Source: Cytophagales bacterium (GTDB lineage: Bacteria > Bacteroidota > Bacteroidia > Cytophagales > Thermoflexibacteraceae). Taken from it: a stretch of DNA of 64,000 bases. The notes beneath the pieces were generated by a model, which saw only the letters and a program-made list of their open reading frames with translations, had not been told where the DNA came from and did not search any database. Within the stretch, counting starts at the first letter, position 1; each line of letters opens with the position of its first letter. Location of the stretch: positions 64,001 through 128,000 of the forward strand of contig JAAFKA010000014.1 of the NCBI GenBank assembly GCA_013299115.1. Direction: 5' to 3'. This document shows, piece after piece, positions 18,070-36,700 of the stretch. The position numbers were made by a program, and so were the translations under genes.

Positions 18070-21000
18070 ATGAAAAAACATTGCTCAAAAATTACAAAAA
18101 TACTGCTCTTGCTGGCAATGCTGGCAATGACGCACACAAAGGGGTATGCACAGGCATTCATCACCCGATGGATAACCACCACAGGCACAATCACCATACC
18201 CACCACAGGCGGAGGTTATAACTATAACCTAAGTTGGACAAACCTTACCAATGCAGGCGTAGGTGATGGTAGCATAACTGCCCGAACAGGTAGCCACACC
18301 ATTATGAGTTTAGAAAACGGAAGCACCTACCAAATTGCAATAACGGGGGCTTTTCCGAAAATCTTTTTCAATTTTGGGTCAGAACGAAGTAAGATACGCA
18401 CTATTGAACAATGGGGAAGTATTGCTTGGACTTCTATGCAAAATGCTTTCAATGGTTGTGATAACCTGACCTATAATGCAGTAGATAACCCCGATTTGAG
18501 TGCTGTTACGGATATGTCGGGTATGTTTAGCAATACTTCAATTTTCAATGGCAATATCAATTCTTGGAATGTGAGTAATGTTACCAATATGGCGGGTATG
18601 TTTGGCGGGGCTTATGTTTTCAATCAACCTCTCAATAATTGGAACACAGGTAATGTAACAGATATGAGTGGTATGTTCATTAATTGTACTGCTTTTAATG
18701 GAAATATAAGCACTTGGGACGTAAGCAAAGTTACGAATATGACTTCTATGTTTGAAAAAGCAAGAAGTTTCAATCAAGATATTAGTGCTTGGAATGTTGG
18801 CAATGTTACCACTATGTTATCTATGTTTTGGCAAGCAGATGTATTTAATCAGCCTTTAAATAGTTGGAATGTTAGCAAAGTTACGACAATGAAACTAATG
18901 TTTTTCCTTGCACCAGCTTTTAATCAACCATTAAATAATTGGAGTACAAGTGCAGTTACTAATACAAGTGGTATGTTTAGTGGTGCATCTGCTTTCAATC
19001 AGCCATTAAATAATTGGAATGTAACCAATGTTACAGATATGAATGGTATGTTTAGTGGTGCCAATGCTTTTAATCAACCACTTAATAATTGGAATGTTGG
19101 CAACGTAACAGACATGAGTTTTATGTTTTCTAATGCAAGAAACTTTAATTCAGACATCACCACTTGGAATACAAGCAAAGTTACAAGTTTATTGAGTACA
19201 TTCTTTGGGGCAATAGAATTTAATCAAAACATTAATAATTGGGATACAAGCAATGTAACCACTATGGCTTCAACTTTTTGGAAAGCTGAAAAATTTAATC
19301 AGCCTCTCAATAATTGGAATACAAGCAAAGTTACAACTATGCATGGAATGTTTGCCTTTGCTACCATTTTTAATCAACCCTTAAATAATTGGAATGTTGC
19401 GAATGTAACAACCTTGCGGGAAATGTTTGTAAGTGCGGAAGCATTTAACCAAAATTTGAATAATTGGAATACGGTCAGTGTTACGAATATGGGTTCTACT
19501 TTCTGGAATGCAAAAAGTTTCAATGGTGATGTTACTACTTGGAATACAAGTAATGTTACCACTATGGGTTTTATGTTTTCAGGTGCTACGCCTTTTAATC
19601 AAGACTTAGTGAACTGGGACACAGGAAAAGTTACAGATATGACCAATTTGTTTGCAGGTACTGCTTTTAATTATAATATCAATAATTGGAATGTAAGTAA
19701 TGTAACAAGCATAGCTGCTATTTTTAATGGTGCAAAGTTCTTTAACCAACCACTTAATAATTGGAATACAAGCAATGTAACTGCAATGCGATGGGCATTT
19801 TGGGGTGCAACAGCCTTTAATCAGCCATTGAATAATTGGAATGTGAGTAAGGTAGCTAACATGGAAGCCGTATTTTATGATGCCTTAGCTTTTAACCAAT
19901 CTCTTGCAAGTTGGGATATGGGCAATGTAACAAATGCAGGATTTATGCTATTGAATAGTGGGCTTTCTGTGGCAAATTATGATGCAACACTTATTAGCTG
20001 GGCAGCACAAACCTTGCAACCAAATACAGGTTTAGGGTCGCAAGGGTTAAAATATTGTGCAGTAGCAGCACGAAATACTTTATTAGCTGCACCCAAAAAT
20101 TGGACTATTGCAGGTGATGCCCTAAGCCCTACTTGTGTACCTGTTTGTAACAATATCTACGTAAATGCAAGCACAGGCAACGATGCCAATGACGGACTTT
20201 CCAATGCCACTGCCAAACAAACTTTACAAGCAGCCTTTTCCACCGTAGCCGATGGCTGCACCGTAGTTCTCAATGCAGGAACTTACAACGAAAACGCAAC
20301 CCTCACAGGCAAATCTATTGCTTTGCTCGGCGTGGGCAACCCCACTGTTAGGCGAATAAACATGAACGGAGCAGGAAAAACCATGACCTTGACAGGGGCA
20401 GTGCAAATTTCGGAGTTGCTCAACTTGCAAGACGGCAATGTGGTGTCTAACGGAAATCTTACTTTGCTTTCCTCCGCAGCAGGGCAGGCATACATAGTCA
20501 ATAACTTGACTGCGGTAGTGATTGGAGATGTAAAAGTGCAGAGATTTGTGCCAAGTTATGCAGCAAGAACTACTACACAAGGCTACAATTATTTTTCTTC
20601 GCCTGTTTCGGGCAAAACCATTGCCGAGTTTAACGACAATGTACCTTTGGTACTCAATCCTAATTACGATTTTGTGAACACCTACGCAGGTGCTTTTCCA
20701 AATTTCTACCGATACAACGAAAACAGGGTAGTGAGTTCTCCCGCAGCCTCCAATGTTTTTGAAAAAGGTTGGGAGTCACCCGCCAGCACAGCCGAAAATA
20801 TGGAAGTAGGCAGAGGCTATATTCTCAACCTCAATTCAGGCTTAACACTTGATTTTATTGGCAACTTAAATAATGGCAATATAACCACCAATATTACACG
20901 TGGAAACGCAAGCAATTCGGGCTGGAATTTGGTAGGCAATCCCTATCCTTCGGCTCTTGATTTCAATGCTGTTTATACCCTCAATAGTCCGCAAATAGAT

Positions 21001-21942
21001 GGCTATAATTACCGCAGAATTGCCACAGGCTTGTATTCAGGCACGTGGGCATATTATGTGCAAGGCTTGCCCACAGGCACCAATGGCAGCACCAGTGATA
21101 TTGCCTTAGGGCAGGGTTTCTTTGTTCGCAAAAGTAATGTTGGCATTGCCAATTTGCAATTTAACAACACGATGCGGACTATTGCCAATCCGCAATTTTT
21201 TAGAACAGAAGACGCACAAAATACTGTTAATCAAGACATTAAAGGTTTATTGAAACTCAAAATATCGGCACAGGCAGGCAAAAAACAGGCAGATGAAACC
21301 CTTGTTTATTTCCACACGCAAGCAACCGAACACACCGATAAGGCATACGACGCACCCAAAGTGCAGTGGAATACAGGTGGTTCGCCAAATCTTTATACCC
21401 GAACCAAACAGCAAAATTTTGCTATCAATGCCTTGCCAAATCTGGAAAAAGAAACCACTATTCCGCTATGTTTTATTGTGGGCGAAAAGGGAACTTACAC
21501 CATAGAAACGATGGAAATGGGCAATTTTATTGGCTCGCCAAGCCTTGTGCTGGAAGACAAACAAACAGCTACTTTCCACCAAATTGCTACTAAACCTTAC
21601 ACCTTTGAAACTACTATAACAAATGATACCAGTCGTTTCGTCTTGCGTTTGGTGCCAGACTTTGCAGCCTTGCAGCAGCAGAAAAGGCAGACAAACGAAT
21701 TGGCTCTTTACCCAAATCCTACACAAGAGGTGCTGACTCTTGCCTTAGAAAATTCGGTAAACAGCGAGGTAACAGTCCGCATCACCGACCTCACAGGCAG
21801 GGAAGTGTTCAGCCAAAATGCAGCCAAAACAACGGACAAAGTGAGCCTAAAACTGAATGTAGCCAACCTTCCGCAGGGGTTGTATATTGTAGAAGTGGCA
21901 GGGGCGGAGTATGTGATGAGCAAAAGGTTTGTGAAGGAGTAA
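18070..21942 (+). CDS. Giant secreted protein with about 20 DUF285-type ~26-aa repeats and a T9SS C-terminal sorting domain
   Basis: 1290 aa with a signal peptide. The unit FNQPLNNWNVSNVTDMSGMF is repeated many times. The C-terminus (LYPNPTQEVLTLAL...GLYIVEV) matches the Por/T9SS CTD. Confidence 0.8.
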   Translation: MKKHCSKITKILLLLAMLAMTHTKGYAQAFITRWITTTGTITIPTTGGGYNYNLSWTNLTNAGVGDGSITARTGSHTIMSLENGSTYQIAITGAFPKIFFNFGSERSKIRTIEQWGSIAWTSMQNAFNGCDNLTYNAVDNPDLSAVTDMSGMFSNTSIFNGNINSWNVSNVTNMAGMFGGAYVFNQPLNNWNTGNVTDMSGMFINCTAFNGNISTWDVSKVTNMTSMFEKARSFNQDISAWNVGNVTTMLSMFWQADVFNQPLNSWNVSKVTTMKLMFFLAPAFNQPLNNWSTSAVTNTSGMFSGASAFNQPLNNWNVTNVTDMNGMFSGANAFNQPLNNWNVGNVTDMSFMFSNARNFNSDITTWNTSKVTSLLSTFFGAIEFNQNINNWDTSNVTTMASTFWKAEKFNQPLNNWNTSKVTTMHGMFAFATIFNQPLNNWNVANVTTLREMFVSAEAFNQNLNNWNTVSVTNMGSTFWNAKSFNGDVTTWNTSNVTTMGFMFSGATPFNQDLVNWDTGKVTDMTNLFAGTAFNYNINNWNVSNVTSIAAIFNGAKFFNQPLNNWNTSNVTAMRWAFWGATAFNQPLNNWNVSKVANMEAVFYDALAFNQSLASWDMGNVTNAGFMLLNSGLSVANYDATLISWAAQTLQPNTGLGSQGLKYCAVAARNTLLAAPKNWTIAGDALSPTCVPVCNNIYVNASTGNDANDGLSNATAKQTLQAAFSTVADGCTVVLNAGTYNENATLTGKSIALLGVGNPTVRRINMNGAGKTMTLTGAVQISELLNLQDGNVVSNGNLTLLSSAAGQAYIVNNLTAVVIGDVKVQRFVPSYAARTTTQGYNYFSSPVSGKTIAEFNDNVPLVLNPNYDFVNTYAGAFPNFYRYNENRVVSSPAASNVFEKGWESPASTAENMEVGRGYILNLNSGLTLDFIGNLNNGNITTNITRGNASNSGWNLVGNPYPSALDFNAVYTLNSPQIDGYNYRRIATGLYSGTWAYYVQGLPTGTNGSTSDIALGQGFFVRKSNVGIANLQFNNTMRTIANPQFFRTEDAQNTVNQDIKGLLKLKISAQAGKKQADETLVYFHTQATEHTDKAYDAPKVQWNTGGSPNLYTRTKQQNFAINALPNLEKETTIPLCFIVGEKGTYTIETMEMGNFIGSPSLVLEDKQTATFHQIATKPYTFETTITNDTSRFVLRLVPDFAALQQQKRQTNELALYPNPTQEVLTLALENSVNSEVTVRITDLTGREVFSQNAAKTTDKVSLKLNVANLPQGLYIVEVAGAEYVMSKRFVKE

Positions 21943-22107
21943 CTGTAGCTGCGGGCTTTAGCCCGCAGGATATTGTAGCATGGGCTTTAGCCTGTGCCAA
22001 AAAAATTGCAATGCTACCAATATAAAGTCCCTATCGGGACAAAAAAATATGGTGTGCTTTATTGCTACCAATATAAAGTCCCTATCGGGACAAAAAATGT
22101 AAAGTTC

Positions 22108-22450
22108 TTGTGCCGTTAGGCACTACATATTGGTAGAAAATAAGGAACACACCAAAATTATGTGCCGTTAGGCACTACATATTGGTAGAAAATAAGGAAT
22201 ACACCAAAATTATGTGCCGTTAGGCACTTCATATTGGTAGAAAATAAGGAATACACCAAAATTATGTGCCGTTAGGCACTTCATATTGGTAGAAAATAAG
22301 GAATACACCAAAATTATGTGCCGTTAGGCACTTCATATTGGTAGAAAATAAGGAACACACCAAGATAATGTGCCGTTAGGCACTGCATATTGGTAGAAAA
22401 TAAGGAATACACCAAAATTATGTGCCGTTAGGCACTACATATTGGTAGTA
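22108..22450. repeat. Tandem array of about 7 copies of a 52-bp unit (gtgccgttaggcactacatattggtagaaaataaggaaYacaccaaaattat)
   Basis: The period of 52 was measured from successive tgccgttagg occurrences at 22111, 22163, 22215, 22267, 22319, 22371 and 22423. Each unit contains the hairpin gtgcc-gtta-ggcac. Confidence 0.85.
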
Positions 22451-22571
22451 TTTTCGGTTTTAAGAAACCGAAATCACATAAAAAATTGCGGGCTAAAGTC
22501 CCGCAGCTACAGTAATTGAAAGCATTAAAAAACTGCGGGCTAAAGTCCCGCACTACAGAAAAGATAAAACT

Positions 22572-22760
22572 ATGAAAAAATATTTGGTAATCATCGCCTT
22601 GCTCCTCCTTGTGTGGGAGGTGCAGGCACAAGGGTTAGACCCTGTTCCGCCACCCGAACCTGTAAATGGTGTGCCTGTTGATGGCGGAATTAGTGGGCTA
22701 ATAGCAGCAGGACTGGCTTATGGTGCAAAAAAACTGCACGATAGACGGAAAAGAATGTAA
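22572..22760 (+). CDS. Small ORF: signal peptide plus Pro-rich segment plus TM helix plus basic tail (sorting-signal-like mini-protein)
   Basis: 62 aa, MKKYLVIIALLLLVWEVQA / PVPPPEPVNGVPVDGG / ISGLIAAGLAYGA / KKLHDRRKRM. It sits in a repeat-rich intergenic region and is flanked by a D hairpin upstream and a family A palindrome downstream. Confidence 0.3.
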   Translation: MKKYLVIIALLLLVWEVQAQGLDPVPPPEPVNGVPVDGGISGLIAAGLAYGAKKLHDRRKRM

Positions 22761-22767
22761 GTTTTTT

Positions 22768-22860
22768 TACGTTGGCAATGGTGCATTTTCGCACCTTGAC
22801 AATCGTAAAAAAAAATTTTCTACGATTGTCAAGGTGCGAAAATGCACCATTGCCAACGTA
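22768..22860. repeat. Family A element: perfect 40-bp inverted repeat with an A/T loop
   Basis: tacgttggcaatggtgcattttcgcaccttgacaatcgta ... tacgattgtcaaggtgcgaaaatgcaccattgccaacgta. Confidence 0.85.
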
Positions 22861-23181
22861 GAAAACGGAGCTACCAATATAAAGTCCCTATCGGGACAAA
22901 GTTAAAGTTGTAACATTTGTGCCTTTAGGCACTACATATTGGTAGAAAACGGAAACGTATCACGTGATTTTGTGCCGTAGGTCAATTCCATTGCGGACTA
23001 TCTATTGGTAGCACTTTCGGTTTTGAGAAACCGAAAGCACAAAAAAACTAAGTACAGAAGTAAACAAAAACCGTAGGCTAAAGCCTACGATACATTCTAA
23101 CGAAAAAATAAGTGCAAGAGTAAAAAACTGCGGACTGAAGTCCGCAGCTACAGTATTTTCACATTTAAACTATATACTAAA

Positions 23182-24798
23182 ATGAAAGCATTAAAATTGA
23201 TTTATCTTGTGCTATTTGTAGCACTTTTTGCGGGAGGGTGTTCTTCAACAACAAAAGAGCCAACTCCTACACCAGCAACAGGCAGTGTAGCAGTTGCTGA
23301 CTTTTCGTTCAATCCTACAACAGGCACTGCACCTTTGCAAGTGAGCTTTACAAATGCTTCAAAGCAAGCAGAAAGTTACAAATGGACTTTTGAAGGAGGC
23401 AGTCCTGCAAGTTCGATAGACAAAGACCCTGTTGTAACTTATGCGAAAGATGGGACTTATAAAGTTACATTGATAGCAATAGACAAAGATAAGAAGGAAA
23501 GTCAGCCTGCTGAGAAATCAATAACAGTGAGTGCTGCACCTATTACACCTGCCCCTGTAGCCAATTTCACGTTTACGCCAACCACAGGCACTGCCCCTTT
23601 GTTGGTAACATTTGCCAATACCTCGACCAATGCTACTTCGTTTGCGTGGGATTTTGGCAACGGACAAACCTCAACCGCAGCCAGCCCTACTACTACATAC
23701 GCCACCGCAGGTACGTATAACATCAGGCTGACTGCCACAGGTGCAAACGGACAAACCAACGTGAGGACTGCAAACATTACGGTTACTGCACCAGTGGTGC
23801 AAGCCTACACCATTAACGACAAGTGGATTACAGCTTTTAATGACGAACCAAAATCTTATCGCAATCACCACTATACTTTTGACTTAAACGAAGAAACCAA
23901 AGTAGATTTTAGTATTACCTCTTCGGTAGCTTGTGGTTTTATTGTCTATAATAGTTTGGATATTATAGAAATTAATGAAGTAAACTTTATTAATTCTCGC
24001 ACAAGGACAGGTTCGAAAGTACTGAAAGCAGGTAAATATAGAGTAGTTGCCATAGGCATTGAAGGTGCAGATGCCAATTATGTTTTGACAGTAACAGGTA
24101 AATTGGCTGCAAGACCTGCAAAAATAGAAACACAATACCAGAGAATGGTGGGTAGTTGGACTTGGTCAAACAATGACCGCCAACAAGCTATGTCTGCCCG
24201 CAATCGTCATTATGATATTGAGGTAACACAAGATACGCAAATTGATTTGATACTTACTTCTTCTCTAAATGTAAGGCTTTATATGATTAATGCTTTGGAG
24301 TTTAGAGTAATAGACGCAGATAATACCTTTAGTAAAACCATAAGGAAGTCTGTAACTGTTCGGAAAGGTAAATACAGAATAATTGCGAGTACCTACTCAG
24401 ACGGACAAGAAGCTAATTTTACCCTTGATATTTTTGGGCATTTTGCTAATGTAACAGAAATAAAATCTCTTGAGCCATTTTTCAATGGTTCGTGGACAGC
24501 TTCGGCAAATTCTCTGACTTCGCCCAATAATCCTCGCTATAATTTGGAAGTTACGCAAGAAAGTATGGTAGATATTTGGGTAAGTTCGCCAACTATAGAC
24601 ATTCGCTATGCCTTGCTTAACGAAAGAGGTGATGTGATAGTAGATTCAGGCACACGCAGCAGCAAAACTTGGACTGATAACGGTGTACTTCCCAAAGGTG
24701 TTTATACTATTGTCGTTGCCACCCGATTAGACAACCAACGAGGTAATTTTACTTTGGAGGTTTACGGTCATTTTATCAGCAATTTTAGGTTGAAGTAA
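23182..24798 (+). CDS. Lipoprotein with two PKD domains and three C-terminal ~100-aa repeats
   Basis: 538 aa with a lipobox (FAGGCSS). FSFNPTTGTAPLQVSFTNAS and FTFTPTTGTAPLLVTFANTS are PKD motifs. The C-terminal triplicated units end in NFTL(D/E)xxGHF. Confidence 0.7.
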   Translation: MKALKLIYLVLFVALFAGGCSSTTKEPTPTPATGSVAVADFSFNPTTGTAPLQVSFTNASKQAESYKWTFEGGSPASSIDKDPVVTYAKDGTYKVTLIAIDKDKKESQPAEKSITVSAAPITPAPVANFTFTPTTGTAPLLVTFANTSTNATSFAWDFGNGQTSTAASPTTTYATAGTYNIRLTATGANGQTNVRTANITVTAPVVQAYTINDKWITAFNDEPKSYRNHHYTFDLNEETKVDFSITSSVACGFIVYNSLDIIEINEVNFINSRTRTGSKVLKAGKYRVVAIGIEGADANYVLTVTGKLAARPAKIETQYQRMVGSWTWSNNDRQQAMSARNRHYDIEVTQDTQIDLILTSSLNVRLYMINALEFRVIDADNTFSKTIRKSVTVRKGKYRIIASTYSDGQEANFTLDIFGHFANVTEIKSLEPFFNGSWTASANSLTSPNNPRYNLEVTQESMVDIWVSSPTIDIRYALLNERGDVIVDSGTRSSKTWTDNGVLPKGVYTIVVATRLDNQRGNFTLEVYGHFISNFRLK

Positions 24799-25228
24799 AA
24801 AAACAAAATTTCGGCAGTTTTTTGAACTATTGGCAGGGCTGAAAAAGCCATTGCCAAAGTTCAAAAAAGCCAATGCCGAGGTTGCAGTTTTGTAACCATC
24901 AGCAGTGGTAAAACTAACGTAGGGACGAAATAGTGCAAGCTATTTTGTTCCTACGTTAGTTTTACACCAGCCTACTTAGAGAGGTTTTGCTATAAATATT
25001 TCGTGCCTAAAGGCACTAAAAGATATGATTTATAGCTATAGTAAGTCTAATACTTATTTTGTAAAGCTATTTTTTTGCGTAAATCCTGACTCTATTATTG
25101 TTTAATCTTTAAACAAAAACAGAAAAAACACTTCAAAAATTGTTTAATAAAAAAATATTTTATAACTTGCCAAGTTGCTATTGCAAACAAGCTACCACAA
25201 ATATTTAACCCAACATTCGGCATTTTTT

Positions 25229-26602
25229 ATGGATATTACCCAAAAATTTTGGTCTTTTTGCCACAAATTAAGGCATGATGGCATTGATTCGTCTGATTAC
25301 ATAGAACAACTTACTTATTTGTTGTTTCTGAAAATGGCAGACGAAAAGCAGTTGCCTGTGCCTGCGGACTATAATTGGCAGCAACTTATCAAAAAAACGA
25401 ATGGGGAACTTATCACACAATTAGATGCAACCTTGCAGGTCTTGAAAAACGAAAAAGGGATTTTAGGGCAGATTTTTGCCGAGCCAGTTTCTCGTATCAA
25501 AAATGCGGTGTTGCTCAAAGATTTGTTGAAAGAAATAGATGCTATTCAGTGGACGAAATTAGATAGTGATGTGGTGGGGCTGGCGTTTGAGGAGTTGATA
25601 GGCAGAGTAGCCAATGAAGGCAAAAAAGGGGCAGGACAATATTTTACGCCTCGCCCACTGATTAAGGCTATGATAAATGTGATGCACCCCAACCCATTTG
25701 CAGCAAAGGACTACAAAATCGGTGACGCTGCATGTGGCACGGCGGGTTTTCTCACTCTTGCCTGTGAATGGATACACCAACACTACCCCAAAGAATCTGC
25801 CGAACAAGCCGAAAAATTAGCTTATCATACATTCTGGGGACAAGAAATAGTACAAAGACCAAGACGTTTGGCACTGATGAATATGTTTTTGCATGGCGTA
25901 GATGCCAGCGAAACCATTAAGTTTGGCGATACGATAGAAAACGACCAGCTACCAAATGACTTTGATTTGATTTTGGCTAATCCGCCTTTTGGCAACAAAG
26001 GAGCTGCCCCGCTGCACCGCAAGTTTCCTGTCAAAACAAGTGATAAACAGCTTAATTTTGTGCAGTTGATAATAGAAAAACTGAAAAAAGGGGGCAAGGC
26101 TGCGGTGGTGTTGCCCGATAGTTGTTTGACAGATGACAAAGCAAAAGAAATGTGGAAATATTATTTGGAACAAGAGGAGATTATCAACTTGCATACAATT
26201 TTGAAATTACCAAGAGGCACATTTGCTGCCTATGCAAATGGTATTAAGGCTTGTGTTTTATTTTTTGAAAAGGGAAGTAAGACCGAAAATGTATGGGTGT
26301 ATGATTATAGGACTAATGTTCCTAACATGACAAAAAAGACAAGACAACTTTCAATAGAAATGTTTGAGGAGTTTGAAAAATGTTTTGTAGAAAGAAAAGA
26401 AATAGAAAGATTTAAATTATTTTCATTTAGGCAAATTCAGGAAAATTACTTTGCTTTGGATTTTAGATGGTTACAAGATGATGTTTTGTTAGATTCAGAT
26501 GAATTGCAACCACCAAAAGACCTTATCAACTATGCTCTTGATAATTTGCAAGAAGCAATGACTAATTTGAGTGAAATTTTAGAATTATTGGACAAAAAAT
26601 GA
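25229..26602 (+). CDS. hsdM: Type I restriction-modification system methyltransferase subunit
   Basis: The conserved HsdM N-terminus starts at the internal Met (MDITQKFWSFCHKLRHDGIDSSDYIEQLTYLLFLK). The NPPFG N6-adenine MTase motif is present. The ORF track begins 54 nt earlier at 25175. Confidence 0.9.
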   Translation: MDITQKFWSFCHKLRHDGIDSSDYIEQLTYLLFLKMADEKQLPVPADYNWQQLIKKTNGELITQLDATLQVLKNEKGILGQIFAEPVSRIKNAVLLKDLLKEIDAIQWTKLDSDVVGLAFEELIGRVANEGKKGAGQYFTPRPLIKAMINVMHPNPFAAKDYKIGDAACGTAGFLTLACEWIHQHYPKESAEQAEKLAYHTFWGQEIVQRPRRLALMNMFLHGVDASETIKFGDTIENDQLPNDFDLILANPPFGNKGAAPLHRKFPVKTSDKQLNFVQLIIEKLKKGGKAAVVLPDSCLTDDKAKEMWKYYLEQEEIINLHTILKLPRGTFAAYANGIKACVLFFEKGSKTENVWVYDYRTNVPNMTKKTRQLSIEMFEEFEKCFVERKEIERFKLFSFRQIQENYFALDFRWLQDDVLLDSDELQPPKDLINYALDNLQEAMTNLSEILELLDKK

Positions 26603-28176
26603 AGATACCAAAACATTGGCAATATATTTCTTTTACAGAAATCCTTGATATAATAGGAGGTTCTCAACCTGCTAAAGAGGAATTTATTGCCAATTTTCAG
26701 GAAGGATATATAAGGCTTTTGCAAATTCGTGATTTTGGAGATAAGCCTGTTCCTACTTTTGTAAGATTGACGAATAAACTCAGGTTTTGCGATAAAGACG
26801 ATATTCTTATTGCTCGTTATGGTGTTTCTATTGGACGAATTTTAACAGGTATGTCAGGAACTTACAATGTCGCAATAGTAAAAGTTATTATTCCAAAACC
26901 TTTGAATAAAAAATTTATATTTTATTTTCTTAAATCAAATGATTTTCAACAATATATAACTGCAAATGAAAGGGCTGCAATCAATGGTTTTAATAAAGAA
27001 GACTTAAATAATTTTCAAATTCCTATTGCACCATTAATAGAACAAACAGAAATCGTATCTATTTTAGATGAAATCTTTGAGAAATTTGAAACAGCAAAAA
27101 AATCTTTGGCAAAAATTCCTCGCCTATTGGCTCGTTACCGCCAATCTGTTTTAGAAAAAGCTATTTCTGGCGAATTAACTGAGGATTGGAGAGAGGAGAA
27201 TAATGTGGAGTTTGAGTGGGAGAATAAAAAATTAGGAGCTATAACTTCATTAATTACAAGTGGTTCAAGAGATTGGGCAAAATTTTATTCAAATAAAGGT
27301 GCTTTATTTATTCGCATTGGGAATTTGCAAAAGAACTCTATAAAAATAGATTTATCTCCTAATAATTTAAAATTTGTAAATCCTGATAGTGAGGAAGGAA
27401 AAAGAACATTATTAAAGCAAAATGATATTTTAATATCAATAACAGGTGATTTGGGGATTATTGGATTAGTTCAGCAGGATATTGGGGAAGCATATATCAA
27501 TCAACATATAGCATTGGTAAGAGTTAAGCCTAATGATTTCAATACTACTTATATAGCCTATTATCTTTTGACTGATTATGTTAAAATCCAAATCAACAGT
27601 TTAAAATCTGGTAATGTAAAGGCAGGTTTAACACTTAAAGATGTTTTTAATATATCAATAAATCTTCCTTCTCTACCAGAACAAACCGAAATCGTCAATC
27701 GGGTAGAAAAATTATTGAAAAAAGCAGATGAAGCCGAAGCAAAATATAACCAAGCAATGCAGATGATTGATAAATTGCAGGCATCGGTTTTGGCAAAGGC
27801 TTTTAGTGGCGAACTTTCTGAACCGCAACCAAATGACGAGTCTGTTGCTGTACTTTTAGAAAAAATAAAAACCGAAAAGGCACGTTTGGAACAGGAAAGG
27901 AAGGAATTGCAAAAGGCACAAACTACTATCAAGAAAACTATGGCACAACAGGAAAAAGTAGTAAAATCTGTTTTAGATTTTCTACGTGAATCTCCAACTA
28001 AAAGTATGACAGTAGAGGAAGCTTGGCAAGTTTCCGAATACAGAAAAAACAAAGAGGTTGAACTGTTTTTAGATGTGTTGGTTCTTTTAGAAAAAGAAGG
28101 CAAAATTAAAAGAGAGTTTGCTGATGAGGCAACAAAAATTGTTACCAAAATAACCCTAATTGAAAATGCAAATTAA
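26599..28176 (+). CDS. hsdS: Type I RM specificity subunit (two target-recognition domains plus coiled-coil spacers)
   Basis: 525 aa. ATGA start/stop overlap with hsdM. Duplicated TRD architecture with conserved central and C-terminal helical repeats (LPEQTEIV x2). Confidence 0.85.
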   Translation: MKIPKHWQYISFTEILDIIGGSQPAKEEFIANFQEGYIRLLQIRDFGDKPVPTFVRLTNKLRFCDKDDILIARYGVSIGRILTGMSGTYNVAIVKVIIPKPLNKKFIFYFLKSNDFQQYITANERAAINGFNKEDLNNFQIPIAPLIEQTEIVSILDEIFEKFETAKKSLAKIPRLLARYRQSVLEKAISGELTEDWREENNVEFEWENKKLGAITSLITSGSRDWAKFYSNKGALFIRIGNLQKNSIKIDLSPNNLKFVNPDSEEGKRTLLKQNDILISITGDLGIIGLVQQDIGEAYINQHIALVRVKPNDFNTTYIAYYLLTDYVKIQINSLKSGNVKAGLTLKDVFNISINLPSLPEQTEIVNRVEKLLKKADEAEAKYNQAMQMIDKLQASVLAKAFSGELSEPQPNDESVAVLLEKIKTEKARLEQERKELQKAQTTIKKTMAQQEKVVKSVLDFLRESPTKSMTVEEAWQVSEYRKNKEVELFLDVLVLLEKEGKIKREFADEATKIVTKITLIENAN

Positions 28177-29806
28177 ATCGGTATCTATCAAAGAATTTCG
28201 CAATCTGAAAGATTTTAAGATTGATTTTTCTCAATCTAAAACAGTTTTGATTGGACAAAATGCGTCAGGAAAATCTAATTTCTTGGAGGCTATTGTATTG
28301 ATTTTCAAGCAGCTTGATTTTTTTGATAACGAAATTAAAAAAGAACATTGGTTTGAATATGAAATTATTTATAAAATCCGAGAACATACAATTAAAATTT
28401 CAAGAAAATTAGAAAATGGAAAAGAAAAAAATGAATATAAATTTTGCAAAAGTAAAGATTTATTAGGAAACGATGTTTGGAAAGACATCCCAAAGTTCAA
28501 TGAAAAAAAAGATGAATATTTACCTAAATATGTTTTTGCCTATTATTCAGGCTTAGGTAATGGCAACCGTTTGGAGGAATATTTTGAAGAATATCAACGA
28601 AAATTTGCCGAAGATGCTATGAAAATAAAAGATGGTCGTGTGCCAAAACCACCAAGACTATTTTATGCTGAGTTAATACATAGCCAACTTTCTTTATTTT
28701 CATTTTTCATTGATAATCAGCCACTTATATTAAAATTGTTGAAAGACAACTTAAGCATTGAAGATTTGCAAACTGTGTTTTTAACCATTCAAGAACCAAA
28801 CTGGTCAACTCTAGAAAAAAAGAAAAAAGACCCTAAATTTTTTGGTAGTCAAGGGGTTGTAAAAGATTTGCTTGAATACCTGCATGATAATGTAGCTTTT
28901 GCACCTTTTAGAGATAAAATAGAAAATAAAAGCAGGCTTTGGGAGAAAAAAGGAAAGAAAACCTTAGATGTTGTCTATTTATATTTTAATGATTTCGAAA
29001 AAATTAGAAAGTTTATTCGTGATAAAACATGGACTTCTTTTGATTTTTTCCACATCTTAAATACTGCAAATGTTTCTAAACTCATTACCAAAGAAGGTAT
29101 TAAAATTCGTGTCAAGAAAAAGTATGCAGACCGTATTCTGTTTAAAGACCTTAGCGAAGGAGAGCAGCAATTATTGACTGTTTTGGGTTTAATGCGTTTT
29201 ACTTATACAGAGGAGGCTTTATTTCTACTTGACGAACCCGACACACATCTCAATGCTCTTTGGCAGTGGCAATACATGAAGTTTATTGAAATTGTATTGC
29301 AAGATAAAGACAAGGACAAAGATAAATCAAATGTGCAAGTTATTTTGGCTTCACACTCTCCGCTGACTATGGGTAGTTTGGAGAAAGAAAATGTAAGAAG
29401 GTTTATGCAGTTAAATGATAAACTTATAGCTGTTGAGCCAGATGTAAGCCCAAGAGGAATGGGTATCATAGGTATTCTGACCGAAATATTTGGTATTCCT
29501 ACTACTTTGGATATACCAACTCAACAAGATTTAGATGCCCGTAGAGAGTTGGAAAGTAGAGTATATTTTGGCGAAACACTTAATCAAGAGGATGAACAAA
29601 GCTTGCTAAAATTAAATTTAAAACTTGATAATTTAGGCTATCGTCTGATTTATCCTGACCCCTTGTATCAAAAATTTGAAATGACTTTTGCCAAAAGGAA
29701 AAAAGAAAAAGGCTTAGGGCTACCAAGCACACCAGAGGAAGTAGCAGAACTTAATAAACTCGCAGAAGATTTACTAAAAGAATTGTTTGATAACGAAAAT
29801 ATTTAA
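28160..29806 (+). CDS. AAA_15/AAA_21 (ABC/SMC-like) ATPase, Septu PtuA-like
   Basis: 548 aa. N-terminal Walker A LIGQNASGKSNFLEAI. C-terminal Walker B/D-loop FLLDEPDTHLN and ASHSPL. Overlaps the hsdS stop by 17 nt. Confidence 0.6.
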   Translation: MKMQIKSVSIKEFRNLKDFKIDFSQSKTVLIGQNASGKSNFLEAIVLIFKQLDFFDNEIKKEHWFEYEIIYKIREHTIKISRKLENGKEKNEYKFCKSKDLLGNDVWKDIPKFNEKKDEYLPKYVFAYYSGLGNGNRLEEYFEEYQRKFAEDAMKIKDGRVPKPPRLFYAELIHSQLSLFSFFIDNQPLILKLLKDNLSIEDLQTVFLTIQEPNWSTLEKKKKDPKFFGSQGVVKDLLEYLHDNVAFAPFRDKIENKSRLWEKKGKKTLDVVYLYFNDFEKIRKFIRDKTWTSFDFFHILNTANVSKLITKEGIKIRVKKKYADRILFKDLSEGEQQLLTVLGLMRFTYTEEALFLLDEPDTHLNALWQWQYMKFIEIVLQDKDKDKDKSNVQVILASHSPLTMGSLEKENVRRFMQLNDKLIAVEPDVSPRGMGIIGILTEIFGIPTTLDIPTQQDLDARRELESRVYFGETLNQEDEQSLLKLNLKLDNLGYRLIYPDPLYQKFEMTFAKRKKEKGLGLPSTPEEVAELNKLAEDLLKELFDNENI

Positions 29807-30734
29807 GCCTTTTCTGTCCATGAGATACATTGATATTTCAAAACTCACACTTCCTGCTGGTTGGTTGGTAACTGCCAATACTGCCTTAGCTACTTTGCTT
29901 ACAAAGAGCAAAAGAGAAAGAAATGACTTTATAAATTCTAAACAGTCCACTACTTGGAAAGACAAAAAATTGGTTAGTGCTTTAACCGAATTAGTTAATC
30001 CTGCAATGGAAAAATGTTGGTATTCTGAAACCAAAATTAGTGATGATTTAGATATAGACCATTTTCGCCCCAAAGGACACAATGAAAGACTATCATTTAG
30101 AACTCAATTTGAGGAGCATTTAGAAAAAAGACATTTTGAGGAGATTGATACAGAGGTTAATATGGGTTGGTGGTTTTTGGCTTTTGAACCTACTAATTTT
30201 AGAGTAGCTTCGCCCCACAGGAATCAATTACGCAGAAATAATACAAATGAAAGAGCAAAAGGAAAGTCTGATTTTTTTCCTTTGAAAAAAGGTAGCCCCG
30301 TTGCCACTAATCACTATGGGGTAGCAGACGAAATAAATTGCCTTTTAGACCCTTGTAATCCTCATGATGTAGAACTTTTAATTTTTGATAGCAATGGGGA
30401 CATTTTTAAAAATCATACAGATACATGGATAGAATGTAGAATTAATATTTCTATTGTGGTCTATCATTTAGACGAAGCAAAATTGAAAAATGGTCGCCAA
30501 CAAGTTTGGACAAATACAGAAAAATATATCATACAGCCATTAGTTGAGTTAGTAAAAGATACTTCTTTTTCTAATGAAAAGAAGTTACAAGAGGTTAATA
30601 AATTGCAAAATCATTTTTATACTGATTTTGCAGATACAAAAAGGGAGTTTTCTGCTGTTGCCATAGACTGTCTTCGCCATCATCAAAAAAAACATCCTTG
30701 GTTGGATAGATTTCTCCCCAACTTGACAAAATAA
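29787..30734 (+). CDS. HNH nuclease of the TIGR02646 / PtuB-like type
   Basis: 315 aa. CWYSETKISDDLDIDHFRPKGH resembles the retron/Septu-associated HNH family. Overlaps the ATPase stop. An alternative start is at 29820. Confidence 0.55.
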   Translation: MITKIFKPFLSMRYIDISKLTLPAGWLVTANTALATLLTKSKRERNDFINSKQSTTWKDKKLVSALTELVNPAMEKCWYSETKISDDLDIDHFRPKGHNERLSFRTQFEEHLEKRHFEEIDTEVNMGWWFLAFEPTNFRVASPHRNQLRRNNTNERAKGKSDFFPLKKGSPVATNHYGVADEINCLLDPCNPHDVELLIFDSNGDIFKNHTDTWIECRINISIVVYHLDEAKLKNGRQQVWTNTEKYIIQPLVELVKDTSFSNEKKLQEVNKLQNHFYTDFADTKREFSAVAIDCLRHHQKKHPWLDRFLPNLTK

Positions 30735-30790: not shown

Positions 30791-33700
30791 TTACTGCAAA
30801 TTAAATCTCAACTGAATCCCAAACGAAGTATTAGTCCGTCTGAAAGAATTGGAAACATAAGGGGCATTGATAGCGTGGTCGAAATAGAACTGCAAACTTG
30901 CCCGTTGGTTAATCACGTAGTTAATCGTCGGGCGAATTTGGAGGTTGTAGTTGCCTTGTGTTACCGTACTTTCTTGAATTTCCTCGCCGCTTGCCAACGT
31001 CTTAATGCTGCGTTGGGCAGTTTTGGTATCTCTGATGGTGAAGGCACAGGCAAAAGTCAAGTCGTTTTTCAGAGTTCGATAGTTGCCCCTAATTTTAAAC
31101 GGAATTTTGAAGTTTGATTTTACAAAACCAATATTCATCACAATTTCGTTGTTTCGCAATTCGGTAACTTGGGCATTCATCATGTTCATCGCAAGTCCAC
31201 GATTCATATTATACCGCACATCTATCGAGATATTTTTGGCTGTTTTTATCCGCACACCCACCAAAGGTGCAAAACCTTCGGTGATTGTAACTTGATTCAT
31301 CACAAAAACAGGAGTCAAACGGTTGGTATTGGCATCGAGTTTGGCGAGGGGCAAGTTCTGCAAATCTATGTTTAGTCGCAACAGCGAGGGGTCTGTAAAC
31401 GCCAACGAAGATTGGTAGCCTCCTGTGCTGTACTCCGAAGTATAGGCGTGTTCTATCTGAATAGAACGGAAATAAGGTTTCAAAAACGGCAAATTCGACA
31501 AGCCGTTGTAGGTCAATTTCCAGTTTGGCAACGGAATGGCGGGAAAAGCCGACAAACTTTGGTTGCTCACACTGCTGCCACTATACGCCGCCAAAAACGA
31601 AGGAATTAACACGTCTTGGGCATTTCTGTCGTAAGTGCCTTCGGTGTTTCGACTGTCCAAACTCTGTTTTACTGTTTGGCGGTTGCGAATAAACTCATCG
31701 AACAAGGGCGAATTGTTGGCTGCATTATCTCCTGTAAACATGGTGGCTAACGAAAAATAGGTAATAGCATATTGCCCACTTCGCTGCGGTGTTTGCGTTA
31801 CAAAAGCATCGGCAGTTCGGTTATAGGTAAACAATTCTTGGTAAGTTGCCATGTTGGTTCTTCGGGCATTGACCATGAGTTGCATATCTTTCACAGGCTC
31901 AATCACAGCTTCTATCCGCAAAGTTTGGTTAGTTCCTTGCCCAAACGTATTATTTTGCAAGGCACTTTTGCCCAACCATTCTCTTTTGGCTGCGGTTTCT
32001 TTTATGGTAGGGTCTTGGCTACCAAACACAAAGCCCCAACCAGGGGAGTTGAAAGCTGAACTCATACCAAAAGCCCCCGTAGGTGTGGTTAGCACCCCTG
32101 GCAAGGCTGTATTGTTGGTTTCGGTGTAAGAGAAGTTAATTTTTTGCACCATCATCATGCCTTTGAGCAAAGTACGCATAGGGCTGCTCACTGGTTTGGT
32201 AGAGTTTTGGTCAAGTCTTTCTTTGTCTGCCACTTCTGCCAATTTCTTTTCAATTTTCTCTAATCTTTTGTCAAATTTTTCGTTTTTCTTTGCAAATTTT
32301 TCACGCACTTTTTCAGACAACAGGCTGCTGTCGGCTTGGGCTTCTGCTTTCAGGCTGTCCATTTTGGCTGCCAATCTGTCTTTGCGTCCTTCTATTCGTT
32401 TTTTGCGAGCCTCCAAACGCAATTTTTTTCCTGCATATTTCGATGGCAAAGGTTCTTTTGCCTTGCGAGGGTCGGCAACAGCTGCCAAGACTCTACTTTT
32501 TTCGTAGAGTTTTTTCATGTCGAGTTGTCCGTTGATAGCCACGTTTTGGTTGTTCAGCATATTGTTGCCCAAACTATCTGCCAAACCTACTGCACCTGCC
32601 TGCCAAGTGTAACCTGCGGTGTATTTCACATCAGAGGCAACCCAATTTACAACAGGAAACTTGTCAAATGGCAATTTGTAGGTTACGCTGGTGGTCTGCA
32701 CAAAGTTTTTGATACGACCCAAATTGAGCAAATTGTTTAATACCGAGTCTCTTTTGGTTCTGTTGCTAAAACGGTTGGCTTGTGTGCCGTCTATTTCTCC
32801 TGCGGGTTCGTCTATAATTGCCTGTGCCTGTGCCGTATAGTCTAAACGCAAACTTTTGGTAATAGACCAAGCTAATTGGTAACTTCTATTAAAAGTAAAG
32901 GCTTTTTCGTACAGGGGCAATACGCCCAAGGTGCTTAATTGCCCATCTCTCAGTTGAGTTTTCACAAATCTCCTTTCAAAATCTCCGCGTACTGTTACAG
33001 TATTTGGCAAAGGTGCAAAGTTAAAATCTTTGATAAATTTCAAATATTTGCCTTCCAAATTTTGGTTTTTCTTAAAGGGTTCTATCGCAGGCACTTGACT
33101 ATTAAATTGGTATTGCAAACCCAGTCGGGTGTTTTCTTGCTTGTATTCGGCTGTCCGCACATTGCTACTTACCCTTTCCATATAAGCAAAATTCAATGCC
33201 CAATTTTCCACACTCCAAGGCTTAGGTTTCTTTTGCCCTACTGCATTTTTGCCCACATTCTGGAAGGCAATAGTACGCATATTCATATCTTCCCGCACCA
33301 AATCGAGGTATTCTTGCCTGTTGTCTTTTGCATCGAGGGCTTGCGTGAGGGGCATATCGGGGTCAAGGGGATTGAAGTACGGAGTCAAGAGTCGTCTTTC
33401 CATGCCCAAATACATAGGAAGTCGCCAGCCCCATTTGTTGAGTCCAAATTTTTCTAATTGGATTTGCATATTGAGGTCATATTCTAAGGTGTGGTTTCGA
33501 GTTCTTTGCGAAATTTTGTCTTGAATACCTCCAAAAAATGGCGAAACATAGCGGAAACTTGCGTTTATCCTTGCCAAATCTGCCAACTGCACCTGCAAAC
33601 TTGTACGGCTTGCCCAGCCTGCTTCGGTGTTAAATTCGGCTACACGCAATTCGTTTGCCCAGATACAAACAGATTTTGGTTGCAAGTCTGCTGATTCGGG

Positions 33701-36700
33701 GTTTCTCACGCCAATCATTGCCGTTTGCACACTACTCAAATCGGGATTGCCAATGACTGTAATTTTAAATCTGCCTACAATCTCCGAATAAGGCACACGA
33801 ACAGAAAGGCGTTGGTTGTTTCTCCTCGATTTTACATCTATTAAATCTGCCGTTGCCACGTCTATTTCGTTTTCTTGAGGCCACACCACGTTCACGTCTG
33901 TACTGCCAAAAGGTGTCATTTTCAAAGGTACTTCTATTTCATAGTAGTTTTCTTTAAAGTCTGTTCCCAAACGCAAAAATGCAACCATTTCGCCATCTTT
34001 GGCATCTCTACTTTCTGCGTGCAAAAACATTTTGACCCTTTTGTAATTGACCATATCTAAAATCAAATTTTTATAGACTGCCTTTGCATCTTTTTCGGGC
34101 AAGGCATCTACGCACATACGCAAAGACTGTTCATTCAACCTTGCTTGGGTGGCTGCACCTACCAAATTCAAATCACGAGTAAAACCCGGCGGCAACATAT
34201 AAGGTGTAATAGTTCCATCGGCTTTTGGTGTGCCGTTATTGACAATATTGATAGAAGAAACACGCAAATTATTGGTTGTGGCAGGTTCAGGAGGCAAGTT
34301 TAGCCCTGGTGTTTGCAAACTTTCGGTAAAAGGTCGCCAAGGTGTGCCTACAAATTGGAAACGAGCCATACGCAAGACTACGGGCTGTTGCCAATCTGTC
34401 ATATACATACGGATATAACGTATGGATTTGAAACCATCAATAGCACCAACTTTATTCGTAAAATCACGCACAGGAATACGGAACTGATACCATGTAACTC
34501 TGTCGGGATTGGTAGCCGTAGGGTCTGTTACCACCTTGTCCACCACATAAGGGCTGTTTTCTACTTGATTGGGGCGAAGGTCTATTTTGTATTCGTAATA
34601 GCCGTCGAGGTCATTCAAGGAATTATCACGATTAAGGTCTTCGTTGTCGGGCAAAGTAGAGTAAGAGGCAGTCCCTGCATTTTCAGGCGAATTGTTTTCC
34701 ATACCATTAAAAAATTTATAACGGTCGAGGATTTTATAGTCTAATTGGTCTGCTTTGTTGCCCAAATAATAGCTGAAATTGTCGTTAGAAGGGTCATTTT
34801 GTATCTCACGATAGACATCAGGCGTAACTCTGCCTTGCACTGCTTGCAAATAATCTGTAAATTTTTGTCTTTCTACTTCGTCATTGATACCGTCCATGCC
34901 CACGTCTTGCAATGCCCTGGTGCCTGTGCCACCCGAAAAAGCATTGGTTAAAAACTGCTGTTCGGTTACTCTGCCCCATGCCGTTTCTTTTATCCTGTCT
35001 AAATTGTTGGCTTCGGTAGGCAAACCATTTTCGAAACCATGACGACTATCAGGAATTACATCTTCCGATACATTGCCCAAGTTAAAATACAATTCGCCAC
35101 CTGTCGTGTTGTTTTCGGCTTGCACCTGTCCGTTTACCAATTTGGAAATTACCCTACCATTTGTACCTCTAATAAAAGGGTCGAGCAACCAAAATTCTAC
35201 GTATTGAATGTTGATGTTATCAAAATCTACATCAGAAGTAATGCCTTTGGTAATAGCCCCAAAATTGCTGCGAGGATTTGGCAACGTACCATCAGGATTG
35301 AGCAAAGGATTGTAATTGTATTGCCCTCTTTCGTTAGGGTAGTAGGCAATGTTCATTACCTGTTCGGGCAGGTTTATCTGCATGGCATCAGGTTTTACAA
35401 TTTCGTTGAACGGAATTAACCGAACATAGTGGTTTTCTTTGTCCTCTGGCGTAATATTGGGCGGCGGACTTCCACCTGAAACAGTCTGGAAAAAAGAAGT
35501 AAAATCTATGGTGTACCAAGAAGTTTTGGCACGTCTGTAACCATATTCCAAAGGTCTGTTCGGATTAAAGATGGGTCTGAATTGGTTGGGCGTAGAGCCT
35601 AAAATCCACGTGGTGGGTTGCCTTCCTAAGTCATAAGGAATTTCGGCAGCCTCGAAATCGTCTATGAACGAAGTACCGCCATCTTTGCCTATGAGTTGGT
35701 TGGTGCTGGGCAGCAAGGCAGCCACCTCCGAAGAAAAGGTATAACTCGACTTTTCTTTGGTGCTGTATAAGGGCAATTTGTCCACCAAACGAGTGAGCAA
35801 ACGAGCATCATCTTTGCGGTGCTGCACCCCCAAACCGACCAAACTATTGCGTGTAGGCTCACTACCAATGTTCACCCTTGTTATCAAAGGTCTTTCGTTG
35901 AGGTGCATAGCCGTTGCGGTAAATCTTGTATTTTTCGACAAGAAATATTGGGCATCTAAACCAAAGAAATTGCGAGTTTGGAAACTAAACAAGTCGGCTC
36001 TTTCGTATTGTATCCTTATTTCTTTGCCCGAAGCCAACAACTCAGGTCTTAGGATATTGACAACTCCCGATTGGTAATCTGCACTAAAATCTGTACCTTC
36101 TCTCAACAACGTGCCACCTGCCGTTATCTGAATAGAACGAGGGGCAATGTTAATTCCTGGTAGGCGAATAGACGTGCCACTGGTGGAGGCTTGGAAACTT
36201 CCTTTGATAAAAAATTTGCTTTTACTTGTCAAAAGTTGTGCGTCCATTTGCGTTTTGCGATACAACTCATTGAACACATATTTTTGGCGAAATTGCAATT
36301 CTTCTTCGGGCAAAAACTTTTCGTCTAAGGTACGCCCAAAAGGTTCGAGAACAGGGAAAATGATACGCCCAAATTCGGGATATATGGTTACGGGTGCAGC
36401 CACGCCTGATGTACCCGCCAAGTTGCTTTGGTTAGCCGCCGCACCTGTGTTGCCTACCTGCGTAGTGGGGAAAGGATTGGTATTTGCCCCGCCTGTGGTG
36501 CTGGGTATGTTGTTGAAACTCGAAGGCGTAAAACTATTGGCTACACTTTGCGAACTTACCCCTGCAATAAAGTCAAAATTGCCATCGGGCTGCGGGTCGT
36601 TGTTTTGGTTGAGCCTGTCCACACCAAAAACTTGCACCAACGGCACATTTTTGAGGTTTCTGCCCTCTTGCAAGTTCGGATTGTCTATGCCTGTGAGGTC

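Follow-up and report, generated by a model that had tools for sequence, protein, structure and literature searches.

Short hairpin repeats that lie outside genes and occur in many intergenic copies are known from E. coli and Pseudomonas, where the REP, BIME and REPIN sequences, together with the RAYT proteins, form the so-called 'REPtrons'. The REPs of E. coli also have roles in mRNA stability and in termination-type regulation. Another kind of system is provided by the IS200/IS605 elements and the gene-less PATEs. The TnpA proteins of IS608 and ISDra2 bind subterminal hairpins in single-stranded DNA, and the end of IS608 is made up of 19 nt, the hairpin and 10 nt. To our knowledge, canonical IS200/IS605 transposition makes no target duplications. 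In the TIRtrons, the Y1 genes (TIRYTs) lie within longer inverted repeats, some of which contain self-complementary tracts, and the repeats are also dispersed as dimers and clusters (Di Nocera et al. 2013). A Bacteroidetes element, the BrickBuilt MITE of Porphyromonas gingivalis, is reported to be an intergenic element with a spacer-less tandem minisatellite (Klein et al. 2015, PMC4596501).

Here, a 52-bp tandem array is described which we read, with a probability of roughly 0.7, as the product of local amplification: a gene-less cluster of the module that makes up the subterminal ends of widespread Y1 (HUH) IS200-like tnpA genes. It lies in a window, i.e., the whole stretch of 64,000 nucleotides that was analysed, from contig JAAFKA010000014.1 of a Cytophagales bacterium. 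The first-pass annotation had counted seven near-identical 52-bp units, and this count holds. Tandem Repeats Finder (TRF) reported 22109-22448 with a period of 52, 6.5 copies, 96% matches and a score of 624, and the repeat search gave seven in-register copies (at 22108, 22160 and onwards up to 22420) with an eighth copy at 22917. The array is entered as follows.

22110 to 22448, plus strand: array of units B1-B7 (repeat searches; covariance model R1, 72-75 bits, E about 1e-16)

Each unit consists of a 5-bp hairpin, GTGCC-GTTA-GGCAC, a 3-nt spacer, the 10-mer ATATTGGTAG and a 25-nt linker. The array contains seven cores and six linkers, and it stops exactly after ...GGTAG at 22448. It is in the 'left-end' orientation, the one that modules have when they precede a rightward tnpA. 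Eight occurrences of the 27-nt core GTGCCGTTAGGCACTACATATTGGTAG were counted with up to one mismatch, against none expected in shuffles; for CTACCAATAT the count is 13 (0.14 expected), with 11 of them inside 22014-22945. The 14-nt hairpin and the 10-mer are invariant in all seven units. The units differ from one another only at position 16 in the spacer and at positions 39, 47 and 50 in the linker, with unit 5 additionally carrying a caagataa variant; the single-base variants noted earlier (tacat/ttcat/tgcat and gaacac/gaatac) are correct. The linkers of the array are 96-100% identical. In folding predictions, each unit forms the hairpin along with an outer ACCAA/TTGGT helix, with z of about -5 on both strands.

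The model R1 was trained on other genomes, and the window's units score 72-75 bits with it. With up to 75 bits, they are well-preserved copies of a conserved module and show no decay. The earlier suggestion of a hotspot of MITE decay pointed in the right direction but put the wrong name to it. Seven units, a copy number that rests on one assembly, make this the longest array among 1.14 Mb of fetched loci, in which 477 singles, 32 doubles, six triples, three quadruples and one quintuple were counted. When other assemblies were sought for a comparison of copy number, short Logan contigs broken off at the repeats were all that was found (L121-L124, from SRR9948924/26/30). These carry identical flanking genes; L124 ends at about 22041, and L121-123 start at about 23014. 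As the short-read contigs stop at the outer edges of the mosaic, the modules act as assembly breakpoints.

The mosaic to which the array belongs is laid out as two inverted units, the seven direct units, a 62-aa ORF, a 100-bp palindrome, a head-to-head pair and a decayed unit. The following features were identified in and near it.

22014 to 22040 (A1) and 22065 to 22091 (A2), with a linker at 22041-64, plus strand: inverted, diverged copies of the unit (R1, 64.4 bits)
22871 to 22897 (A3) and 22919 to 22945 (B8), no strand: head-to-head pair forming a 75-bp palindromic doublet (R1, 32.5 and 46.6 bits)
22972 to 23011, plus strand: B9, a decayed unit that ends in CTATTGGTAG (repeat searches)
22763 to 22865, no strand: palindrome with 50-nt arms, 96% complementary (inverted-repeat search; R1 at 22827-22899, 32.5 bits)
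24940 to 25018, plus strand: diverged solo module in the next intergenic region, CTATAAATAT-TTC-GTGCCTAAAGGCAC (R1, 30.6 bits, E 1.3e-5)
22452 to 22473, no strand: AT-rich 9-bp hairpin TTTCGGTTT-TAAG-AAACCGAAA, directly after the array, with a second copy at 23015-23036 after B9
21942 to 21968, plus strand: GTAG-tagged short palindrome of a second repeat family, ACTGTAG-CTGCGGGCTTTAGCCCGCAG (repeat searches)
22486 to 22510, 22533 to 22556 and 23128 to 23151: further GTAG-palindromes, with a variant at 23071-23093 (repeat searches)

In the R1 scan, module copies within the window were confined to 22014-23011 and 24940-25018. Three flanking elements of about 33 bp, at 22012, 22063 and 22869, had been noticed earlier and thought to be related to the array through the 10-mer. 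They are indeed present, but their relation is not limited to the 10-mer. Each is a diverged, inverted version of the complete unit, sharing 22 of the 27 core positions and having a related linker, and the change of the hairpin from GTGCC/GGCAC to GTCCC/GGGAC is compensatory. A1 and A2 follow the pattern CTACCAATAT-AAA-GTCCC-TATC-GGGAC, which is the 'right-end' orientation, and the outer hairpins of A2 and B1 face each other across 18 nt. The degenerate units noted further downstream were also recovered, as a copy with 97% identity at 22917-22949 and the decayed copy at 22972-23011. In the palindrome at 22763-22865, which lies directly 3' of the stop codon of the mini-ORF, the arms contain GTGC-ATTTTC-GCAC stems that resemble the inner hairpin of the module. 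Read together, the palindrome and A3 look like the core of a gene-less element with its right half.

The GTAG-palindromes (GTAG-CTGCGGGCTTTAGCCCGCAG) have 8-bp stems of the classical kind, are confined to the mosaic within the window, and on the minus strand take the form of a hairpin with a T-run. Their features would suit canonical REPs of a class 2 RAYT. Another observation is a collinear cassette that occurs twice, at 22405-22575 before the PID-CTERM ORF and at 22965-23185 before the PKD gene. Its order is module, AT-rich hairpin (TTTCGGTTTTrAGAAACCGAAA), GTAG-REP, GTAG-REP, AAACTAT and start codon. The duplicated cassette indicates a segmental duplication or a recombination between repeat clusters.

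A collection of species-representative genomes was searched with the pattern CTACCAATAT-N3-GTSCC-N4-GGSAC, which allows mismatched stem combinations, and at least 120 loci were found in at least about 75 genomes; in addition, the stems covary. The 27-nt core is present in Bacteroidota, Ignavibacteria, Balneolaceae and MAGs labelled Planctomycetaceae, and the matches listed include Flavobacterium, Dysgonomonas, Azobacteroides, Lentimicrobiaceae, Saprospiraceae, Chitinophagaceae and termite-gut MAGs. The top genomes hold at least 13 (from one MAG), at least 10 and at least five loci. For the source genome, the breaks of short-read contigs at the modules point indirectly to dispersed copies. Many copies (L002, L019, L031, L042, L105, L111 and others) come from MAGs, of termite-gut or other origin, that bear the labels Planctomycetaceae or Thermoguttaceae. 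Either these contigs are mis-binned or the family reaches beyond the Bacteroidota/Ignavibacteria group. In Roseimarinus sediminis DSM 28824 (L110:1-1500), there are at least four tandem copies of a unit of about 318 bp, each with a pair of left-type and right-type modules. A search of 2.9 million viral contigs for a phage vehicle gave only two matches.

Nearly all loci show a larger module, in which an inner hairpin is followed by about 24 nt, TTTT-CTACCAATAT, N3 and an outer hairpin. The part common to the genomes is a core of about 32 nt only, the linkers being lineage-specific. Of the 94 aligned modules, 70 have C-G and 24 have G-C as the central pair of the outer hairpin, and none has a mismatch there. 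The neighbouring pairs also covary; the stem covariation score was 0.183 against 0.082 in shuffles and was exceeded in none of 500. Among the non-Watson-Crick cells of the core stems, G.T was counted 41 times on the ATATTGGTAG strand and seven times on the other. This asymmetry comes mostly from one stem position and may be inherited rather than independent, so that it hints, weakly, at one folding strand.

In other genomes, the modules stand inverted about tnpA. At locus L098, an inverted module pair brackets a 153-aa ORF that matches Pfam Y1_Tnp (1.6e-30). The protein passes the NCBIfam model transpos_IS200 (82.8 bits, cut-off 55) and fails REP_Tyr_transpos (32.9 bits, cut-off 80). Its motifs, DHVH/WQ/YIKNQEKHH with the YIKNQxxHH signature, are those of the TnpA-Y1 subclass 1.2 of Quentin, Siguier, Chandler and Fichant (2018). 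The closest solved relatives of this 153-aa TnpA are the TnpAs of ISDra2 and IS608, and the structure of the E. coli TnpA-REP is not among the PDB matches. The family comprises at least 8000 clusters at 90% identity and is very conserved.

The association was assessed in 80 metagenomic loci that were picked by the protein alone, blind to the motif. With up to one mismatch, the 10-mer was found in the expected orientation upstream of tnpA in 39 of 77 cases, mostly at -55 to -70, and downstream in 32 of 78, at +45 to +60. In the wrong orientation it was seen five times upstream and eight times downstream, the chance level being about 0.005 per flank. With a profile HMM, the module was detected upstream in 48/76, downstream in 54/78 and on both sides in 33/74, and in the wrong orientation alone in 0 and 3; about one-third of the tnpA flanks have no detectable module. 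Read toward the gene from either side, the order is outer hairpin, N3, ATAT(T/C)GGTAG, a linker of about 23 nt, the inner hairpin GTCCCGTAGGGAC, GAyATAT and the start or stop codon. In many cases the unit of about 50 bp is repeated two to five times per tnpA end. Three to five such tandem units per end are found at some tnpA genes (L130, L125, L140, L163 and L192), with five upstream and four downstream at L130, and the array of the window is therefore the extreme of a normal feature.

Around the motif loci, tnpA was near in six of 120 among the matches listed (up to 8 kb fetched); most modules are gene-less. The two ends of an element carry the same 10-mer variant in 14 cases against four. 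The identity of TnpA sequences is 0.686 within and 0.677 between 10-mer variants, a marginal difference (p about 0.05). A tnpA on a Bernardetia megaplasmid, 54% identical, has the same layout with different compensating stems and with ATATTTGTAG; this megaplasmid and a Persicobacter plasmid are the only plasmids found with reasonably close tnpA homologues. When terminal inverted repeats (TIRs) with target duplications were sought around the tnpA-bearing copies under two criteria, 12 hits against about five and seven against 3.2 in shuffled controls were obtained. These hits proved to be palindromic artefacts, and no duplication is detectable there.

The picture is different for bounded, gene-less module pairs. 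TIRs with duplications of fixed length were seen in such carriers of four other genomes, with differing termini and lengths.

L018, L044, L094 and L095 (Dysgonomonas sp. 521) and L085 (Saprospiraceae MAG): MITE-like carriers, bounded module pairs
L001-L117 (Azobacteroides MAG WRGA01) and L084 (JAIROD01): MITE-like carriers, bounded module pairs

The carriers of Dysgonomonas and the Saprospiraceae MAG are about 211 bp long, with perfect 5-bp target duplications in six of seven copies. Those of Azobacteroides are about 400 bp long with duplications of about 8 bp, and the carrier of the termite-gut MAG JAIROD01 has an 8-bp duplication. Three different sets of termini were found (ATGCGAATCAAGGGTTAAAT..., AATGATTATCGGAT... 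and GTATCTATTCAG...). No TIR or target duplication was seen around the array or the doublets of the window, and the 20-nt terminus of the Dysgonomonas type was absent beside the window's modules. Mechanistically, the duplications on gene-less carriers are truly puzzling, and they allow two readings: either the carriers were moved by other transposases, or subclass 1.2 works differently. With its conserved subterminal part and variable termini, the layout resembles IS200/IS605 logic more than DDE logic.

How, then, does the module compare with the systems described so far? It is like the REP/RAYT systems in that short extragenic hairpins are repeated in many intergenic copies, stand inverted about a single small Y1/HUH gene, form inverted doublets and clusters, carry GTAG and far outnumber the gene. 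It differs in its protein, which is of class 1 (Y---Q--HH, IS200 model), whereas the RAYT is of class 2 (Y---NP). Moreover, its stems are only 5 bp long and its basic end has two hairpins; its GTAG is not at the hairpin foot but ends the 10-mer, 9-13 nt 3' of one hairpin and about 23 nt 5' of the next. Long head-to-tail arrays occur in the module family, in contrast to what was described by Di Nocera et al. The closest protein relatives, the solved ones included, belong to the IS200/IS605 group (IS608, ISDra2). These elements and their gene-less derivatives, the PATEs, share with the module subterminal hairpins whose true termini are poorly conserved and lie some 20-40 nt outside. The geometry of IS608 (19 nt, hairpin, 10 nt) is similar to that of the module, with an arm of about 25 nt, the hairpin and a 13-nt arm. 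The ends of these insertion sequences are, however, co-oriented, without inverted repeats or duplication, whereas the modules are inverted and tandemly reiterated, and their gene-less derivatives show 5- or 8-bp duplications. Most TIRYTs are of subclass 2.1 with a GGGGWSAS motif; the motif is absent from the modules, and the protein class differs. BrickBuilt, compared here by its description only, has a 23-nt unit, is species-restricted and is not reported to be linked to a Y1 transposase.

The window resembles an ordinary chromosome of the Bacteroidota type. The upstream neighbour of the array is a DUF285 protein of 1290 aa that has a T9SS sorting tail, and downstream follow a PID-CTERM mini-protein, a PKD-domain protein and then a type I R-M system and a Septu pair. 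Other parts of the window hold genes for an aminoacyl-tRNA synthetase, a nucleoside phosphorylase, glycosyltransferases and T9SS cargo, as well as defence genes. The genes that flank the array are all on the plus strand, so it is probably co-transcribed. No rep, par, integrase or transposase genes were found in the 64-kb window, and tblastn for tnpA across it gave no match; with no tnpA within 64 kb, the array is non-autonomous. At the gathering threshold, Rfam 15 had 0 matches in the whole window, and at E<=10 over the mosaic there were only miRNA/snoRNA-type matches to the 100-bp palindrome, strong but spurious. The tRNA/tmRNA scan found nothing, and the sigma-70 promoter scan showed no enrichment. 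The terminator-like matches are the 5-bp hairpins and the GTAG-REPs on the minus strand.

Some further features of the region were recorded. The product of the 62-aa ORF (22572-22760, plus strand), which is wedged between repeat clusters, consists of a sorting signal only. It has a signal peptide and, at the C-terminus, VPVDGG...TM...KKLHDRRKRM, and it matches NCBIfam PID_CTERM (42.4 bits, cut-off 26). The assembly index held no gene with exactly this product. The mini-ORF was also considered as a recurrent cargo between modules and was rejected, as no homologue was present in any fetched locus. The defence island at 25175-30734 (plus strand) comprises type I R-M methylase and specificity subunits, followed by PtuA (482 bits) and PtuB (200 bits) by PADLOC; the adjacent minus-strand ORF of 2553 aa (30791-38452) has no PADLOC match. 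The 75-bp repeats reported by TRF at 18844-19128 are coding DUF285 (BspA-like) repeats outside the non-coding mosaic.

Several other explanations of the array were weighed. It is conceivable, although unlikely, that the modules belong to the interior of ordinary MITEs, which one or more DDE-type transposases with staggered cuts would mobilise, the Y1 gene being a passenger or regulator and the array a minisatellite in a broken MITE. The bounded gene-less elements, with their terminal inverted repeats and perfect 5-bp or roughly 8-bp duplications, are what such an origin would leave behind, and BrickBuilt shows that a minisatellite can occur inside a MITE in Bacteroidetes (PMC4596501). The conservation, however, runs the wrong way, as termini and duplication lengths vary by genome and the subterminal modules are conserved, which is the reverse of DDE binding sites. 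Recognition of the IS200/IS605 type uses subterminal hairpins, and conserved subterminal modules fit it. The modules are, in addition, bound in position and orientation to tnpA in a sample picked blind to the motif; the module arms enclose no other ORF, a non-exhaustive look beside the copies revealed no DDE transposase gene, and the window's array itself is without TIR or duplication. A fault of assembly, whether in the copy number or in the whole array, is very improbable. It is true that the mosaic is where short-read assemblies of this organism break off (about 22041 and 23014), but a genuine multi-copy repeat would cause such breaks as well. The units also carry distinct combinations of variants, unlike a simple loop artefact, and independent assemblies hold arrays of three to five units with an equal period.

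Retention of the array for a function in the host's RNA or DNA is compatible with an origin from the transposase, but as the explanation of the array it has slim prospects. The stem-loops could stabilise or terminate the DUF285 mRNA or tune the PID-CTERM ORF, or the array could supply small RNAs or antisense promoters. Probable co-transcription with the plus-strand genes, the folding of every unit with z of about -5 on both strands, and the presence of one cassette before both neighbouring ORFs would suit such roles; so would the minus-strand linkers, each of which carries TAATTTTG, which we take to match the Bacteroidetes -7 box TAnnTTTG. The 5-bp stems are, however, poor terminators, because they lack proper T-runs, and both the linker with the -7-like box and the outer helix are lineage-specific, not conserved in the family. 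The multi-hairpin small-RNA reading offered by the first-pass annotation is neither supported nor excluded: no Rfam family was found at the gathering threshold, and the miRNA-like matches below it are spurious. The same annotation had proposed a satellite or an iteron-like protein-binding array. Binding of a protein was well conceived, most likely of a Y1/HUH transposase and not of a replication or partition protein. Regular tandem units, each with a small inverted repeat, do recall an iteron or a centromere-like site, and sopC of plasmid F has 12 repeats of 43 bp. But the chromosomal context effectively refutes this possibility, with 64 kb free of rep, par or plasmid genes, housekeeping and defence genes as neighbours, and a module dispersed in many chromosomes beside a transposase gene. 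A CRISPR array had been excluded earlier and rightly so, as the whole 52-bp unit repeats without spacers, and the ORFs scanned include no cas genes. The array is a REP/BIME-like selfish repeat cluster, and not an iteron array, a CRISPR array or a known small-RNA locus.

For this transposase-linked cluster, the following course of events may be envisaged. Where the DNA is single-stranded, as on the lagging-strand template, the short GC-rich hairpins would extrude, and we infer that they are bound in this form by a transposase supplied in trans, from a tnpA assumed to lie elsewhere in the source genome. The invariant 10-mer may be the determinant of recognition or cleavage, by analogy with the subterminal hairpins of IS608 and ISDra2 and the cleavage sites beside them, and with the GTAG-tagged REPs of the RAYTs. 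The array presumably grew in place, either by slippage or unequal recombination between units or, alternatively, by repeated transposase-catalysed strand transfer beside a unit that ends in its own target (...GGTAG). Growth in place would explain why the units are homogeneous within an arm and different between arms, and it is suggested by the 96-100% identity within an arm as against 72% between arms. The effect of the array on its host is probably that of neutral to mildly regulatory baggage, like that of the REP/BIME clusters.

The survey of Quentin et al. (2018) lists subclass 1.2 without REPs and describes its genes as low-copy and lacking the properties of insertion sequences. For a REP it required a stem of at least 7 bp and GTAG/GTGG (GT[AG]G) within 0-2 nt 5' of the hairpin foot; modules whose stems have 5 bp and whose GTAG is distant would have escaped such a search. 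As this one phylogenomic survey found to cover subclass 1.2 lists no REPs, the association of the module with the transposase appears undescribed. No description of this repeat family was found among the papers searched, and full-text searches for the 10-mer gave chance occurrences only, mostly primers. The feature is of a known general kind, the transposase-associated extragenic hairpin repeats, in an apparently undescribed variant.

A bolder proposal, which we regard as possible but doubtful, is that the subclass-1.2 Y1 proteins are the hub of a phylum-wide REPtron-like system with a module of its own (5-bp hairpin, N3, ATATTGGTAG). The enzyme would act on a one-hairpin unit of about 52 nt that ends in its own target, and it would thereby build head-to-tail arrays unit by unit. 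Symmetric action on both strands of inverted ends might also yield MITE-like derivatives with target duplications. If true, this would be a mode of HUH transposition undescribed for IS200/IS605 or RAYTs.

The modules break short-read assemblies of Bacteroidota, and their annotation would help. An odd satellite becomes a member of a large, apparently uncatalogued repeat system that is tied to a conserved HUH transposase. If the enzyme acts on the modules, they would offer a compact single-stranded recognition unit for the biochemistry of HUH enzymes, and the genomes that carry them would harbour, nested within, a second and independent lineage of REP/RAYT-like replicators.
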